A stretch of DNA of 4,989 nucleotides from a virus. Lineage: Duplodnaviria > Heunggongvirae > Uroviricota > Caudoviricetes. Positions 1 to 4,989 of this stretch are shown here, piece after piece (positions within the stretch are counted from its first letter, which is position 1; each line of letters opens with the position of its first letter). The position numbers and the translations under genes were made by a program. Below the pieces are notes generated by a model that was given only the letters and a program-made list of their open reading frames with translations, did no database searches and was not told the DNA's origin. The stretch spans positions 1 to 4,989 of IMG/VR virus record IMGVR_UViG_2698536458_000008; one strand, given 5' to 3'.

Positions 1-103
1 ATCAATAACTTAAACTGGTGGTGATGGTGACATAAAAATCAAAAAATACGCCTTTTTCCGCGAACCGCCCGCCCCGTGGACAGGCCACCCCCACCAGGAG
101 TAC

Positions 104-131
104 CTACAAAAAAGCCGGATTGCTCCGGCTT
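104..131 (-). terminator. Rho-independent terminator ending the minus-strand operon after the SSB-like gene
   Basis: On the minus strand: 8-bp stem AAGCCGGA / UCCGGCUU with loop GCAA, followed by a U-run (UUUUGU); it lies about 15 bp past the SSB-like stop codon (146-148). Confidence 0.6.
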
Positions 132-145
132 CTGTCACTCGTTGC

Positions 146-568
146 TTAAAACGGTATGTTATCCCCGTACGGATCATCATTCCCCGCCTGTTGTTTGGCC
201 CTGTTCAGTGCATCAGTGGCCTGCCCCTGTTGGCCTTTTTTACCGCCCGGTCGCGCCGTTCTGGCACTGATTACACTGTCTGCGATAACCTGCCAGCCCT
301 GCCGCGTTTCTCCGTTCTGGCCTGTCCACTGGCTTACCTGCATGTTACCCGCCACGCTCACCAGCTCGCCTTTCTGGTGCTTTGCCAGTGCGTCAGCCTG
401 TCTGCCAAACGCCAGGACGGATAACCATATCGTCGCCGTTCCGTCATCTGCCTGGCTGCACGGCAGGGGAACCGCCATACTCGCCATCGTCATTTGCGTA
501 CCCTTGCTGGTGGTCTTTAACTGCGGGTCAGCCACCAGCCGCCCGTAAGCCGCTATCTGTGCTGTCAT
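146..568 (-). CDS. ssb: Single-stranded DNA-binding protein (SSB family), 140 aa, accessory copy carried by the element
   Basis: OB-fold core collinear with E. coli SSB (IWLSVLAFGRQADALAKHQKGELVSVAGNMQVSQWTGQNGETRQGWQVIADSVI versus the [40 protein letters not shown] region), Gly/Gln-rich linker and a C-terminal tip ...DDPYGDNIPF resembling the canonical DDDIPF tail. GGAGAG Shine-Dalgarno 8 nt upstream; the ATG overlaps the upstream stop as ATGA (565-568). Confidence 0.85.
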   Translation of the reverse strand: MTAQIAAYGRLVADPQLKTTSKGTQMTMASMAVPLPCSQADDGTATIWLSVLAFGRQADALAKHQKGELVSVAGNMQVSQWTGQNGETRQGWQVIADSVISARTARPGGKKGQQGQATDALNRAKQQAGNDDPYGDNIPF

Positions 569-810
569 GCTGTCTGCTCTCCGGTTTTAACGTTGATGGT
601 TGTCACCTGTTCCGCTTCGGCAATCTCCCGTTCTGTCAGCGTGGCAAAGTTTGCCGCCGTCGTGGTCATGAATGCGCTTATCAGTTCGGGATGTGCTTTC
701 GCGTATCCTTCCCCGGCGTTGCGGTCGATGATTTTTATCGCCACCCTCAGCCAGTGTTCTGTCAAATCAAGGGCGTGAGATTGTGGTTTTTTGGCGTGCT
801 TCGTTGTCAC
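565..810 (-). CDS. Hypothetical protein, 81 aa, translationally coupled to the SSB-like gene
   Basis: ORF in the six-frame track beginning MTTKHAKKPQ; GTG start at 810-808 preceded by GAGG with a 7-nt spacer; stop overlaps the SSB start (ATGA). No family recognised by eye. Confidence 0.55.
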   Translation of the reverse strand: MTTKHAKKPQSHALDLTEHWLRVAIKIIDRNAGEGYAKAHPELISAFMTTTAANFATLTEREIAEAEQVTTINVKTGEQTA

Positions 811-854
811 AGGCTTTACCTCACAGCAATAAAATAAAATTTTTGCATTTTAAC

Positions 855-1084
855 CCTTCACCTGTTCACCTTTTGCAATTTTCCCTTTTTATTCATGATG
901 TTAATGGGTTAACAGTTTCACAAAAACTATTCACCAACTGTTCACCACTGTTCACCCTTAAAGCTCAATAAAGAATCAAAAAGGTGAACAGTGAATAGTT
1001 TGGTGAACAGTTCATAAATAACTGTTCACCCTATAATATACTGATATAAAAGACATTTATTGCAGGGTGAACAGTGGTGAACAG
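855..1084. repeat. Iteron-type replication origin (P4 ori-like): TGTTCACC octamers in both orientations around an AT-rich core
   Basis: Direct TGTTCACC at 863-870, 939-946, 949-956, 1023-1030, with degenerate copies at 855-862 (CCTTCACC) and 928-935 (TATTCACC). Inverted GGTGAACA at 983-990, 1003-1010, 1066-1073, 1076-1083, with a degenerate copy at 991-998. Tandem copies are phased at 10 bp (939/949 and 1066/1076). A perfect 9-bp inverted pair GGTGAACAG(1003-1011) / CTGTTCACC(1022-1030) flanks an AT-rich spacer, followed by the AT-rich stretch 1031-1062. TGTTCACC is the type I iteron bound by the P4 alpha protein at ori and crr. The array sits immediately 3' of the primase-helicase gene. Confidence 0.75.
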
Positions 1085-1113
1085 TTATTCCATAAGTTTA
1101 ATTTTTTCCATCG

Positions 1114-2916
1114 TCATTTGTGACCTATTGCACATGATGGCATCCAGTCTTCTGAATCCTCTGTCAGGGTCACATTTGAACGCAAACCGTGCTTCGTTTT
1201 CCGTTTCATATACTCCCTGCCATATTCCGCCATTGCCCCCGGCATATCTTTACCGAAGCGCGTCAGTGTTACAGGTTTACCGAATCCGTGTGCCCTCATA
1301 TATGCCAGATAGGCGTGATAAAGATACCTGCGCGGACTGAACGGAATAATTTCGGCATTACCCACTAACAGACCATCACACATTACCGACGACATGAGAT
1401 AGCCGCAGAAGTCCACCAGCGAATCGCCCTCGCGTTTTATCACCAGAGCTTCTTCTGATTTCTGCTGCTCATACAGCAGGCGTTTAGCTTCGTCCTGGTC
1501 AGAAAAACGAGTAAGCAGGTGGCGAATCACAACCGCCAGCTCTCCTTCTATTTTTTCTGCCAGCATGGGGTCGCGTTCGTTCTCCGGTACAACTTCCGAA
1601 AAATTGAATATCACCCGACGACGTGAGATCCCCCCGCTGCGGTCACTGAATGACATGGCGTTATTGTTAACCGCCAGCACTACTGCCGGAATACGCGTTG
1701 AGTAGGGGGCTTTGTGTTTCGGGTCAATTGCCACCTTGTCACCGCCTGTAATGGCCTTAATCCCTGCCCCATCACCAGCGTAGCGGGTCATATCCGGCAT
1801 GATAATCAGCGAAAAGCCAACCACTAACGCGCGTTCCCTTGCATCTTCCAGCGCCTTCATGCTTGCCGATACTGTGTTGGCCTTACCCGCCAGCATGGTG
1901 CAAATCTCCGCCATCACGCTTTTACCACTTCCCCCTGGACCTGTTACCTCAATGAATAACTGCCAGTCGTACCGGTTCGCCAGCACCATGAATAATACAG
2001 CCAGTACGCGATCCGCCTTGCGGTCATTCTCAGCCACCGAACGGCGTAACCACTTCCAGAAATTCGGCGCATGTGTTGCCAGCGTTTCCCCCTCTGCTGG
2101 TGGGCTGAAAGGTAATTCACTGGCAATTAACAACCAGTCGTTTTTGTTATGCTCCCGAAAATTACCTGTTCTGGTATCAAATACCCCGTTACTGAATCCA
2201 ATCAGGTTACGGGCTGTATTCCCCATTACAGGCAAACTTAACTTCATGGTATCGACCGCCGATTTAATGGCGTTCTGCGAATAGCTGATCTCCGCATCAA
2301 TGAAAATCTGTGCCATAGCTCGCTGTAATTCTTTATCCTGTACTGGCTCCCATACAACGCCGTTGTAATGGTGAACAGTGTCAGAGTCAGCATGAATCGC
2401 CAGTTCACCGCCATAATGTGCCAGGAGAACTTCGCCGCGTTGACTTGCTCCCATCTGGTTAAGCGCCAGTGATGAAGCGTTATCGTCTTTTACCCGCTCT
2501 TTTTTCTTTACAGGCAGTTCAACTACCTTTTTCTTTTCCGCCTGCTCTGCCCGTTCACGTTCCAGATATTCGCGCCAGTTCTCCCGTTTCTGGCTGTGCA
2601 TTCCTTCAGGGTAATAATCAGCATCCCTGACACCTGCCGCTGCCAGTTTCTGCCCGATGGTATTAACAAGCCCCGGACGCAATAACCCCGCCTGGTAGAG
2701 ACGCACCCGATAGCGTCCGTCCGGTACGATTTGCAGCTTATCCAGTTCGGCAAGTTGTTGTTCTCCAAGCCAGACAGGAGGCACGCTGTCGCCAGCCAGT
2801 CGCCCGTCCTGTTCCTGCCACTGCTTCGCATGTGCCCACGCATCATTACCCGCAAAAATGATGACTTCCGTCATTTTGTCACGCGGCTGGTGTTTTAAAT
2901 TTGGCGCTTTTTTCAT
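1114..2916 (-). CDS. Replication initiator: P4-family primase / D5-like SF3 helicase, 600 aa
   Basis: Walker A FIEVTGPGGSGKSV, Walker B-like LIIMPDMTRYAGD, SF3 motif C-like VVLAVNNNA, and a D5_N-like region upstream (VLLAHYGGELAIHADSD...HYNGVVWEP). Preferred start is the ATG at 2916 (MKKAPNLKHQ...), with GGAGAGAG 5 nt upstream and an ATGA overlap with the upstream gene; the ORF track extends 5 codons further to a GTG at 2931. The cognate iteron array lies directly downstream. Confidence 0.9.
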   Translation of the reverse strand: MKKAPNLKHQPRDKMTEVIIFAGNDAWAHAKQWQEQDGRLAGDSVPPVWLGEQQLAELDKLQIVPDGRYRVRLYQAGLLRPGLVNTIGQKLAAAGVRDADYYPEGMHSQKRENWREYLERERAEQAEKKKVVELPVKKKERVKDDNASSLALNQMGASQRGEVLLAHYGGELAIHADSDTVHHYNGVVWEPVQDKELQRAMAQIFIDAEISYSQNAIKSAVDTMKLSLPVMGNTARNLIGFSNGVFDTRTGNFREHNKNDWLLIASELPFSPPAEGETLATHAPNFWKWLRRSVAENDRKADRVLAVLFMVLANRYDWQLFIEVTGPGGSGKSVMAEICTMLAGKANTVSASMKALEDARERALVVGFSLIIMPDMTRYAGDGAGIKAITGGDKVAIDPKHKAPYSTRIPAVVLAVNNNAMSFSDRSGGISRRRVIFNFSEVVPENERDPMLAEKIEGELAVVIRHLLTRFSDQDEAKRLLYEQQKSEEALVIKREGDSLVDFCGYLMSSVMCDGLLVGNAEIIPFSPRRYLYHAYLAYMRAHGFGKPVTLTRFGKDMPGAMAEYGREYMKRKTKHGLRSNVTLTEDSEDWMPSCAIGHK

Positions 2917-3267
2917 TTCTGCTCTCTCCACGCGGCAATCATGTTTTTCAGTTCCTGTAGTTTTTTATCAACATCCATACATGACACATGGTTATTTCTG
3001 GAAAGCGGGATTTCCCGCCTGAATCTGCTAATAAAGATCTCCACGTTCAGCGAACTATGAAATGAATAGCCATCACGAATAAAATACACACGGTCAAACA
3101 TCAGTTCTTTTACCGTTACTCTGTTACCGTTCNNNNNNNNNNNNNNNNNNNNNNNNNNNNNNNNNNNNNNNNNNNNNNNNACCGTTCTTATCCAGATAAA
3201 TAGCGCCGGGGATAATTTTGGGGTGTGCATAACCGCTGGCAGTCAAGCCAGATAAATACGTTCTCAT
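2913..3267 (-). CDS. Hypothetical small protein immediately upstream of the primase gene, interrupted by a 48-N run (3133-3180)
   Basis: C-terminal part after the gap (NGNRVTVKELMFDRVYFIRDGYSF...AAWREQK) is in the ORF-track frame and its stop overlaps the primase ATG (ATGA at 2913-2916). Before the gap, the frame from the ATG at 3267 reads MRTYLSGLTASGYAHPKIIPGAIYLDKNG; the 7-mer accgttc flanks the N-run on both sides (3126-3132 and 3181-3187), and removing the gap plus one copy joins the two frames into one continuous protein (...YLDKNGNRVTVKELMFD...). Alternative start in the ORF-track frame at 3230. Product unknown. Confidence 0.45.
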
Positions 3268-3273
3268 GATTAT

Positions 3274-3594
3274 TTATCTCAGATTTGAATCAGTATTCGC
3301 TTTCTCTATGGCATTTAATGCATCTGTGGCATTTTCAATGGTGCACCGTAACGAAATATCAAACTGCCCAAGCATTGCCAGTAACAAGCCAATATTACCC
3401 ATGTCAATGCGCATAGCCTTTTCGTCATATTCCTCATTTTCTGACGCATGCCACATCAGGCTACCAATTGACGCAACAGCCATTGATATATTGTCAGTAG
3501 CCCCATCCGCAGCGGAATAAACCTTTTTAGCAATATCATGCTCACAGTTAAAATGCGGATTAATCAGGTACTGGTAATTGGTCATGTCAGGCAT
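3274..3594 (-). CDS. Hypothetical acidic protein, 106 aa
   Basis: ORF with a perfect AGGAGG Shine-Dalgarno 6 nt upstream of the ATG at 3594 (MPDMTNYQYLINPHF...); the ORF-track start at 3636 is 14 codons further upstream and lacks an RBS. TAA stop at 3274-3276. Start overlaps the preceding gene's stop by 8 bp. No family recognised by eye. Confidence 0.6.
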   Translation of the reverse strand: MPDMTNYQYLINPHFNCEHDIAKKVYSAADGATDNISMAVASIGSLMWHASENEEYDEKAMRIDMGNIGLLLAMLGQFDISLRCTIENATDALNAIEKANTDSNLR

Positions 3595-3784
3595 GGCACA
3601 CCTCCTGACGAATACGGGCGGCGAATACAGCAACACAACCTGACGGGCAACGGTTACGCGCTTCGCGTTCCGTCCAGGCGGTTACGTGGATGATTTGAGA
3701 TTCTCCGGCACTCAGGGCCAGAAAACGCCACACAAAGGCCGTTTGTGTGTGTACAAGGTGTGGTATATGATTTACGGCAACCAT
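3587..3784 (-). CDS. Small protein, 65 aa, possibly Icd-like (host cell-division inhibitor family); first gene of the leftward early operon
   Basis: ATG at 3784 preceded by GAGGAG with a 5-nt spacer (the ORF track extends 33 codons further upstream into a hairpin region without an RBS). Sequence MVAVNHIPHLVHTQTAFVWRFLALSAGESQ...TEREARNRC...VFAARI resembles, from memory, the Icd-like proteins annotated next to alpA in P4-like islands; that assignment is unverified. Confidence 0.5.
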   Translation of the reverse strand: MVAVNHIPHLVHTQTAFVWRFLALSAGESQIIHVTAWTEREARNRCPSGCVAVFAARIRQEVCHA

Positions 3785-3813
3785 AACGGCTCCTCGTTTA
3801 CGTTGTTGGTTAG

Positions 3814-3850
3814 AAGCCCTGCGAGTGGTAACGACACTTGCGGGGCTTCG
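3814..3850. other. Long stem-loop (15-bp stem, 7-nt loop) in the regulatory region between the divergent early operon and the RHH gene
   Basis: GAAGCCCTGCGAGTG (3814-3828), loop GTAACGA, CACTTGCGGGGCTTC (3836-3850). As plus-strand RNA all 15 positions pair (13 Watson-Crick plus 2 G-U); as minus-strand RNA 13 of 15 pair. It lies in the 5' leader of the 3784->3587 gene. Confidence 0.4.
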
Positions 3851-3885
3851 TCGTTTCAATTGCTGAATTGCATGTATCAGCACTT

Positions 3886-3957
3886 GTGGTATTCACATTA
3901 CATTTAGGTGAATACCATTTCAAGTCTTTTTTGGTATTCACTTTTGTATTACACTGC
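3886..3957. promoter_or_regulatory. Operator-like repeats (GGTATTCAC) in the promoter region upstream of the RHH gene
   Basis: GGTATTCAC at 3888-3896, its inverted copy GTGAATACC at 3908-3916 (11-bp spacer) and a second direct copy at 3933-3941, plus a degenerate GTATTACAC at 3947-3955, all within about 100 bp of the RHH start codon in an AT-rich region. Confidence 0.45.
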
Positions 3958-3984
3958 ATCCCGTTATTAATGGGAGGTGCAAAC

Positions 3985-4290
3985 ATGTCCAGGAGTTCTG
4001 TTAACAATAAGTCACAGCAACTGAATGCCAGATTTCCACATGAAGTAGTGAGTGGCATTGAGGCATCCCTACAGCCAGGGGAAACTAAAGCGAATTTTAT
4101 AGTTACGGCTGTACGCGGTGAGATCGCCAGGCGCCAGGCAGAAGGAAGTGGAGAAAATCCCCTTGTGTCTTCACTGGATGCCCTAGCTAATGTCGAACAA
4201 ATCGGCATCAAGGCAGCGGAGGAAATCGGGCAGCTTATCACCGTTGCACGCGAAGAACTCCAGCGCCGCAAGGCCAAAGAATCAGAATAA
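3985..4290 (+). CDS. Ribbon-helix-helix (Arc/MetJ/CopG-like) DNA-binding protein, 101 aa; candidate repressor of the element
   Basis: GGGAGGTG Shine-Dalgarno 5 nt before the ATG at 3985. N-terminus KSQQLNARFPHEVVSGIEASLQPGETKANFIVTAVRGEIARRQ fits the RHH beta-strand/helix/helix pattern (compare Arc QFNLRWPREVLD). C-terminal ~50 aa is helical and charged. Opposite orientation to all flanking genes. The ORF-track version starting at 3838 is an unsupported N-terminal extension. Confidence 0.7.
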   Translation: MSRSSVNNKSQQLNARFPHEVVSGIEASLQPGETKANFIVTAVRGEIARRQAEGSGENPLVSSLDALANVEQIGIKAAEEIGQLITVAREELQRRKAKESE

Positions 4291-4347
4291 TCACTATCAG
4301 CGCCGTGGTGTGAGGAACTCCGGCGCATTGCTTTACAGGCGCACACA

Positions 4348-4524
4348 ATGACCAACGAAGAATCAACCAAAAAAACATCACCTGCACGAAAAAGACGACG
4401 CAGAAAGAAAGAGCATGAATCAGAACGATTCGCGCCGTGTTCTTTTGCCCTTGAGAAGTACCTTAAAGAATACTCATCAAAGGAGAGAGCTTCGCAGTTA
4501 TGGCAACGCACTGAAACAGACTGA
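4348..4524 (+). CDS. Putative small basic protein, 58 aa, downstream of the RHH gene (uncertain)
   Basis: My own translation of ATG 4348 to TGA 4522-4524: MTNEESTKKTSPARKRRRRKKEHESERFAPCSFALEKYLKEYSSKERASQLWQRTETD. Same strand as the RHH gene and upstream of the plus-strand terminator, but no convincing RBS; below the ORF-track length cutoff. Confidence 0.25.
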   Translation: MTNEESTKKTSPARKRRRRKKEHESERFAPCSFALEKYLKEYSSKERASQLWQRTETD

Positions 4525-4588
4525 TAGCATTGCCCACCAGCCTGATAGCGGCTATCATTGACATGCTTATGTTTAGTGTTTCCAAACT

Positions 4589-4618
4589 GGCGACCGCCCC
4601 AGGTCGCCTTTGTTTTAT
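4589..4618 (+). terminator. Rho-independent terminator for the plus-strand RHH transcript (possibly weakly bidirectional)
   Basis: GGCGACC (4589-4595), loop GCCCCA, GGTCGCC (4602-4608), followed by TTTGTTTTAT. On the minus strand the same hairpin is followed by a poorer U-tract and lies just downstream of the AlpA-like stop. Confidence 0.65.
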
Positions 4619-4635
4619 GTGTCATATGCTCCCCT

Positions 4636-4845
4636 TTACACTGCCTTACCTGAATTAATGCGATCCCGGCTTTTAACCCATTCCATAACCTCGGACAGCA
4701 GCCACCCTACAGAACGACCGCCCAGATTAAGACGTGACGGAAAGCGCCCTTTTTTCTCCAGTTCGTAACGTGTAGTGCGGCACACTCCAGTTAACTTACG
4801 ACATTCATCCTCACGGATTACGCGATCTTCATTTATTTCACGCAT
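4636..4845 (-). CDS. alpA: AlpA/Vis-family phage transcriptional regulator (excisionase-like HTH), 69 aa
   Basis: MREINEDRVIREDECRKLTGVCRTTRYELEKKGRFPSRLNLGGRSVGWLLSEVMEWVKSR contains the AlpA-type motif (compare E. coli AlpA ...LGVKSVGWIEAEIDEWL). ATG at 4845 gives the family-typical ~70 aa; the ORF-track start (GTG at 4932) adds 29 residues of doubtful coding quality. Confidence 0.8.
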   Translation of the reverse strand: MREINEDRVIREDECRKLTGVCRTTRYELEKKGRFPSRLNLGGRSVGWLLSEVMEWVKSRDRINSGKAV

Positions 4846-4989
4846 ACAAAAACCTACATAAAAATTACGTATATAAACTTTTCTCTTAGCTGTAGATATA
4901 TGAGATCGGATATTACTTAGATTCTTTTTCACCTCTTAAATTAAAAACACAACCATGCTGGTAATGACTCCAACTTATTGATAGTGTTT

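Follow-up and report, generated by a model that had tools for sequence, protein, structure and literature searches.

Which kind of element encodes an SSB (single-stranded DNA-binding protein) translationally coupled to a small companion, and what would the two proteins do there? The DNA analysed here, called the window throughout, is a stretch of 4,989 nucleotides (IMG/VR record IMGVR_UViG_2698536458_000008, positions 1 to 4,989; Caudoviricetes). A first-pass annotation, made from the sequence alone, placed at positions 146–810 an accessory SSB and an unknown 81-aa protein, immediately beyond the origin of a P4-like satellite. It offered several roles: replication of the element itself, competition with host SSB, or a decoy or trigger for host defences.

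A coupled gene pair between an origin and a terminator

The part of the window that concerns the pair contains the following features.

105–135, minus strand: intrinsic terminator past the SSB gene; stem GAAGCCGGA / UCCGGCUUU closed by a GCAA loop and followed by a U run
146–568, minus strand: 140-aa SSB open reading frame, ATG start (ORF list)
565–568, minus strand: ATGA stop/start overlap of the pair, read from the sequence; translational coupling
565–810, minus strand: 81-aa open reading frame, GTG start (ORF list)
811–1113, no strand assigned: replication origin, 303 bp, AT-rich (30–36% G+C), with TGTTCACC iterons in opposed (inverted) sets at 863–1083
1114–2931, minus strand: Pri-Rep initiator-helicase, 605 aa, with D5_N, DUF5906 and Pox_D5 domains

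The ORF list and the sequence at 565–568 both bear out the coupled pair; annotations of E. coli relatives and of the island EcCICFT073 show an identical overlap of 4 bp. Each start is preceded by a Shine-Dalgarno-like sequence: GAGGT 7 nt ahead of the GTG of the 81-aa gene, and GGAG about 10 nt ahead of the ATG of the SSB gene. Both reading frames are real, constrained genes, since their pairwise dN/dS values (81-aa gene, 0.15; SSB gene, 0.17) denote purifying selection. The position immediately beyond the origin is likewise confirmed: the AT-rich iteron spacer of 303 bp is all that separates the primase stop (1114) from the start of the 81-aa gene (810).

On the other side of the pair, the minus strand of 95–150 folds into a GC-rich stem of 9 bp followed by a U run, with a free energy of −19.8 kcal/mol (z −3.6; none of 200 shuffles was equally stable), as expected from the terminator described in the first-pass annotation. 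A scan for consensus promoters and terminators missed this hairpin at 105–135; it reported no terminator at all and a single promoter-like site, on the plus strand. Between the primase gene and the pair, neither sequence reading nor the consensus scan found a promoter-like site or a terminator on the minus strand, and the pair would be co-transcribed with pri-rep.

G+C content is 53–63% in the SSB and partner genes, against about 43–54% in the primase gene (profiled over 1101–1500) and 30–36% in the origin. The pair and the rest of the island may have different evolutionary sources.

The element is a Gram-negative PICI

The element is a phage satellite: a Gram-negative phage-inducible chromosomal island (PICI) of the same type as EcCICFT073. 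Gram-negative PICIs (GN-PICIs) are defined by an AlpA regulator, a pri-rep gene and an origin made of two iteron sets around an AT-rich region (Fillol-Salom et al. 2018, PMC6092414). The window has an AlpA gene, the primase gene and the iteron-containing AT-rich origin; its other genes are listed here.

2913–3267, minus strand: DUF4222-like open reading frame upstream of the primase gene, broken by 47 N (3134–3180) and not readable in full
3587–3883, minus strand: Icd-like gene, with small open reading frames on both sides
3985–4290 and 4348–4524, plus strand: YlcI/YnfO-family gene and a 58-aa Lys/Arg-rich gene (phrog_21027), between the AlpA gene and the leftward operon
4636–4932, minus strand: AlpA-family gene (PF05930, E 2.1e-16)

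The YlcI/YnfO and phrog_21027 genes are the only ones to run against the main direction of transcription, and this plus-strand segment (3985–4524) may serve as the island's regulatory switch region. No tRNA gene is present in the window.

Megablast places the region in E. coli chromosomal islands of about 10 kb, with the order int, AlpA-type HTH, YlcI/YnfO, Icd-like, DUF4222, primase, hypothetical protein, SSB, a PerC gene in some, a ClpP-protease/capsid fusion and a few small genes. Relatives that are 93–96% identical are islands of about 10 kb as well, with int at one end and the capsid/protease gene followed by one to three small genes at the other; their insertion sites include pgrR/mppA and cspD/clpS. 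The window itself covers 5 kb, and the bounds of the island (int, overall size, lack of a full structural or lysis set) are taken from these relatives, which fit the PICI format of some 10–12 kb between an integrase and a specific att site.

Four E. coli genomes have the pair between the primase and capsid genes of int-bounded islands, which occupy three different chromosomal sites. The pair therefore belongs to the mobile element, as first proposed, and the alternative that it is ordinary chromosomal flank is ruled out. Of 5426 complete E. coli genomes, 1753 (32%) contain DNA of the pair, in up to six places per genome, where it is consistently annotated as 'single-stranded DNA-binding protein / hypothetical protein'.

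A P4-type replicon in a PICI gene order

Eight exact TGTTCACC octamers lie in the spacer, against an expectation of 0.24 for the entire window. P4 has this octamer in its ori and crr, under the name 'ori type 1 repeat', and the layout of the origin agrees with that published for GN-PICIs (PMC6092414). The sole Rfam match, to the plant microRNA family MIR5380 at 912–1025 on the minus strand (32 bits, gathering score 150), falls on the inverted iteron repeats and is an artefact of the palindromic origin.

Residues ~150–600 of Pri-Rep are 50% identical to residues ~325–777 of P4 alpha, that is, to its helicase and DNA-binding part. Because of this identity and of the shared type 1 octamer, we class the replicon, on sequence, as a P4-alpha-type allele. 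The first 340 residues of alpha match Zn_Ribbon_Prim and Toprim_3, which are both absent from the island protein. Instead, the N-terminal 160 aa of Pri-Rep (2452–2931) match no Pfam family and no PDB chain and show no recognisable primase domain: the protein may be wrongly named a 'primase', or this domain could be a novel one.

The likeness to P4 set out in the first-pass annotation holds for the initiator-helicase and the iteron octamer and gives way elsewhere. Next to alpha, P4 has a terminator and then crr, attP and int, whereas in the island Pri-Rep is followed by the origin and then the pair. P4 has neither an SSB of the island clade nor a phrog_1231 gene (the family of the 81-aa protein, see below); conversely, neither the window nor the full-length relatives of the island have sid, delta, psu or epsilon. 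A search for the CI-type immunity RNA (Rfam C4 / isrK) gave no match in the window at E up to 0.1.

The gene order is that of EcCICFT073, which we located at NC_004431.1, 1,377,930–1,388,654, between roxA and phoQ of strain CFT073. The two islands share int, the AlpA-type HTH, YlcI/YnfO, Icd-like and DUF4222 genes, a primase-family initiator, an iteron origin, a small hypothetical gene, the SSB gene and late/capsid genes. Straight after its primase gene and origin, EcCICFT073 carries an 85-aa gene with a 4-bp overlap into the gene of a 136-aa SSB. Compared with the proteins of the window, identity is 88% for the partner and 72% for the SSB, whose tip in EcCICFT073 is GDDIPF in place of GDNIPF. 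Past the SSB gene, EcCICFT073 continues with PerC and a small hypothetical gene, and then with genes for capsid and decoration proteins, which are c1499 and c1500 in PMC6092414, whereas the window has the terminator and then ends.

The replicons of the two islands differ far more than the pairs. The Pri-Rep of EcCICFT073 is a different allele, 48% identical to that of the window, and its iterons are TGTCTACC / GGTAGAYA (positions 28990–29280 of locus L190) as opposed to the eight copies of TGTTCACC at 863–1083. Since the pair stays similar where Pri-Rep and iterons diverge, it is independent of initiator specificity. We also observe that the two Pri-Rep proteins resemble each other closely in their N-terminal domain, whereas elsewhere they are about 45% identical. 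It appears that the helicase/DNA-binding part and the iterons were swapped together as a cassette, and that the N-terminal domain and the genes of the 81-aa protein and SSB stayed similar.

Induction, replication and packaging of EcCICFT073 were shown to be helper-dependent (PMC6092414), and another paper assigns the 'Primase, SSB and DUF5906' genes of GN-PICIs to the replication category, co-localised with mapped origins (Mageeney et al. 2023, PMC10111431). The pair is thus already catalogued and annotated, in the replication module of the GN-PICI that has been studied best, and the copy in the window is an unremarkable allele. In the literature searched, we found no functional study of a PICI SSB or of its partner.

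The island SSB carries a canonical docking tip

Profile searches confirm the 140-aa protein as an SSB. It matches PF00436 (E 3.9e-16, 59.4 bits, cut-off 26), TIGR00621 (60.5 bits, cut-off 53.95) and phrog_44, as well as 29 solved SSB chains at E < 1, the best being 1z9f (E 3e-10). The protein consists of an OB-fold (residues ~1–100) and a short linker rich in Gly and Gln, and ends in an acidic tip, ...NDDPYGDNIPF.

With 140 aa against 178 aa, the island protein is shorter than E. coli SSB, to which it is 25% identical over the OB domain. A single pairwise alignment places W48, F54 and W81 at the positions of W54, F60 and W88 of E. coli SSB, and a non-aromatic residue at that of W40; in the pairwise alignment His55 is replaced by Leu. 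In E. coli SSB, His55 is important for tetramer stability. Owing to the His55-to-Leu replacement and the short linker, the oligomeric state and the cooperativity of the island SSB may differ from those of its E. coli counterpart.

The tail had at first been called slightly non-canonical. Among 72 related loci the tip reads GDNIPF in 33, GDDIPF in 27, GDGIPF in five and GDEIPF in one, and the terminal IPF is retained in every intact copy except one (ISF). Judged against these relatives, the tail of the window is instead an ordinary allele of the canonical acidic ...D-x-IPF partner-docking tip. DnaG, Pol III chi and PriA dock on the C-terminal tip of SSB; recruitment of SSB-interacting proteins by this tip is well established (see, for example, the abstract of PMC10164576).

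Proteins 50–72% identical to the island SSB are encoded by small circular 'plasmids' of Klebsiella, Enterobacter and Serratia that resemble satellites or phage-plasmids, and another in this range by Sodalis pSG2, beside a relaxase. A protein search returned 775 SSB clusters (90% identity), which come almost entirely from Escherichia, Shigella, Salmonella and Citrobacter, and no SSB of the phage collection is more than 31% identical. The island SSB belongs to an enterobacterial mobile-element clade, distinct from the E. coli chromosomal SSB and from the SSBs of the phage collection. Accessory SSBs are common on plasmids and phages; those of plasmids and temperate phages that belong to PF00436 likewise combine an OB-fold with an acidic IPF tip, on a mobile element and near replication or transfer genes.

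The partner belongs to a family that recurs in replication modules

The 81-aa protein matches phrog_1231, a phage family with no assigned function, over nearly its whole length (E 4.7e-49, residues 2–80 on profile positions 4–82 of 83). It has no match in Pfam, NCBIfam or PDB, nor in PADLOC at E up to 0.01. All 33 proteins tested, the 81-aa protein and 32 distant relatives, match the same profile. A profile search of 1.84 billion representative proteins gave 682 clusters (50% identity) of small proteins at E ≤ 0.001, found in Proteobacteria, Verrucomicrobia, Bacteroidota and Cyanobacteria; at 90% identity, a protein search gave 160 partner clusters, again almost entirely of Escherichia, Shigella, Salmonella and Citrobacter origin. 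The family shares the motif ID..xG.GYA..HPELI.AFM.TAA. AlphaFold, run with the wider alignment, predicts a helical hairpin (pLDDT 84.7) with helices at 9–32 and 41–75 and the motif at the turn; fold searches with this model returned no informative match.

The first-pass annotation proposed to look for co-occurrence of the partner with SSB genes in other elements. Of 80 close relatives on viral contigs, 73 have room for an SSB gene, and 70 of these 73 do have one at most 60 nt downstream, in the same orientation. Distant relatives belong to Nitrosomonas, Xenorhabdus, Achromobacter, Verrucomicrobia, Bacteroides and further genera, or to phage contigs of metagenomes, the genome collection being scanned with a narrower alignment as query. 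With an SSB profile of the PF00436 type, which would miss DUF2815-type and other non-PF00436 SSBs, an SSB gene was found in none of 18 genome loci and in two of 73 viral loci, adjacent in one only. The association therefore stands at 70 of 73 close loci versus one or two of 91 distant ones.

What some of the distant loci do show is replication enzymes of several kinds. In 20 of them a primase-helicase is encoded within two genes upstream of the family member, with at least five unrelated architectures (Zn-ribbon/Toprim-DUF927, VapE, D5_N-DUF5906-Pox_D5, AAA_25 and PrimPol-DUF3987), and in nine a family-A DNA polymerase gene lies directly downstream. Apart from the weak matches beside a capsid gene described below, the remaining distant loci have small unannotated neighbours only; overall, about two thirds of the distant loci have no identifiable replication enzyme within two genes. 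By gene neighbourhood, the partner family is a frequent member of mobile-element replication modules, and its tight coupling to an SSB gene is a trait peculiar to the enterobacterial PICI clade.

Two further observations concern these neighbourhoods. In satellites with a VapE primase, the next gene resembles a late-gene antiterminator by its N-terminal sequence, as judged by eye. About nine weak matches to the 81-aa profile adjoin a T4-type major capsid gene; among them are short proteins of 63 aa encoded directly 3' of Gp23 major capsid genes on metagenomic phage contigs (L143, L158, L167, L168, L170, L171 and L173). These matches represent either a divergent branch outside replication modules or chance.

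A probable role in replication of the island

We propose that the pair forms the distal, accessory end of the GN-PICI replication operon and probably serves replication of the element. We read it as the tail of the pri-rep operon because the SSB has the family assignment and the tip described above, because the position after the origin is conserved, because nothing separates the pair from pri-rep and because a terminator follows. That the pair is conserved while initiator and iteron specificities differ between islands speaks for a role alongside something that all of them share, such as single-stranded DNA or the host replisome, and not in origin recognition.

Upon induction by a helper phage, the leftward (minus-strand) operon would be transcribed through the initiator-helicase gene, across the iteron origin and into the genes of the 81-aa protein and the SSB, to stop at the terminator around 105–135. 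The island SSB would coat the single strands opened by the island helicase at the origin and at forks, while its conserved ...D-x-IPF tip would dock the same host proteins as host SSB does (Pol III chi, DnaG, PriA and others). It could thereby provide extra SSB capacity during the burst of joint helper and island replication. As Pri-Rep has no recognisable primase domain, it is plausible that the island depends on host DnaG, brought in through the SSB tip. The predicted hairpin of the 81-aa protein would act as an accessory factor of the replication module, its binding partner being more likely a conserved component of the host replisome, or DNA, than the island helicase or SSB.

Several points count against this replication model. 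A clone of pri-rep and ori from EcCICFT073 maintains a plasmid in E. coli DH5alpha, and deletion of pri-rep cuts transfer of the island about 100-fold (PMC6092414). Provided that the clone excludes the pair, neither of its genes is required for initiation and host SSB is enough at plasmid copy number, since pri-rep and ori suffice; the pair thus appears to be accessory rather than essential. The Leu at the position of His55 together with the short linker, the two thirds of distant loci where no replication enzyme is identifiable, and the weak matches on the capsid side also weigh against the model. Replication of the element is nevertheless the best supported of the roles first offered for the SSB, and this support comes from gene context.

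PICIs interfere with their helper phages, and the pair might act in this way, the SSB titrating SSB-interacting proteins or displacing helper or host SSB. A tip that is conserved and compatible with the host would suit such a function, and so would an OB domain as divergent as this one (25% identity to E. coli SSB, at most 31% to SSBs of the phage collection). Furthermore, the EcCICFT073 gene behind interference with lambda is neither c1499 nor c1500 (PMC6092414). However, the abstract of a later paper assigns EcCICFT073 interference to redirection of packaging (PMC6739421). The pair also sits in, and is coupled to, the replication module, and plasmids and phages commonly carry accessory SSBs with no such role; altogether we hold interference to be quite improbable. 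A function in host defence has an even smaller chance of being right. Here the SSB would be a decoy or trigger for SSB-sensing systems, or would shield island DNA from defence nucleases, with the 81-aa protein as a modulator. Defence and counter-defence genes are frequent cargo of satellites. Retron Eco8 is indeed activated by phage SSBs, as the first-pass annotation stated (10.1101/2022.08.27.505566, PMC13402713), but neither protein of the pair matches PADLOC-DB 2.0 at E up to 0.01. In addition, the genes occupy the conserved core beside the origin and not a variable accessory region, and they are conserved across integration sites at a dN/dS of about 0.15, with no sign of diversifying selection of the arms-race type. 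The earlier suggestions of a decoy, of competition with host SSB and of a defence trigger thus find no support here.

A different possibility concerns the partner and leaves the SSB as a merely co-located gene. In P4, Cnr is a small regulator of alpha; by analogy, the 81-aa protein might bind the initiator-helicase and control initiation or copy number. The protein is small and helical, and in 20 distant loci a member of its family comes directly after a primase-helicase. Yet the neighbouring helicases come from unrelated families (D5/DUF5906, DUF927-Toprim, VapE, AAA_25, PrimPol-DUF3987), with DNA polymerase A in their stead in nine loci, so that a single conserved motif is unlikely to recognise them all. 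The 81-aa protein is, moreover, 88% identical between islands whose Pri-Rep proteins are 48% identical, and it has no homology to P4 proteins. We regard such a regulator as unlikely, and retain the accessory replication role for both genes.

The finding changes little as far as the SSB is concerned: an accessory SSB is commonplace on mobile elements, and the pair is present in about one third of sequenced E. coli. What is worth explaining is the pairing of a PICI initiator that has no recognisable primase domain with an SSB of its own whose tip is compatible with the host. The main residual interest lies in phrog_1231, whose members accompany the replication modules of numerous phages and satellites; a function found for the partner of EcCICFT073 would annotate hundreds of protein clusters. 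As a speculation to which we give a low probability, phrog_1231 could be a widespread replication accessory family that acts on a universal component of the host replisome and has become one translational unit with a dedicated SSB in enterobacterial PICIs. It may, for example, be an adaptor or inhibitor that diverts the clamp, the primase or SSB-bound factors of the host to the incoming replicon.

Two candidate links between partner and SSB were discarded. The C-terminal motif 'T.INVK', specific to the E. coli clade, is rejected as a marker of SSB linkage, because the SSB-adjacent distant member (L120) lacks it and because near-identical proteins of two other loci (L100 and L136) have no adjoining SSB gene. 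On the Klebsiella plasmid NZ_CP033626.1, the protein ahead of the related SSB is ruled out as a divergent 81-aa homologue (BLASTP E 5.9): it is an unrelated protein of 126 aa (...GRPSLLIPGDHLEYCDRFKYPVIIVWKR...; L004, 5624–6004) whose gene overlaps the SSB start. A homologue of this 126-aa protein comes after a phrog_1231 member in L136 (6248–6703). The slot upstream of the SSB gene is therefore modular, being held in Klebsiella by a different family that is also seen in L136.
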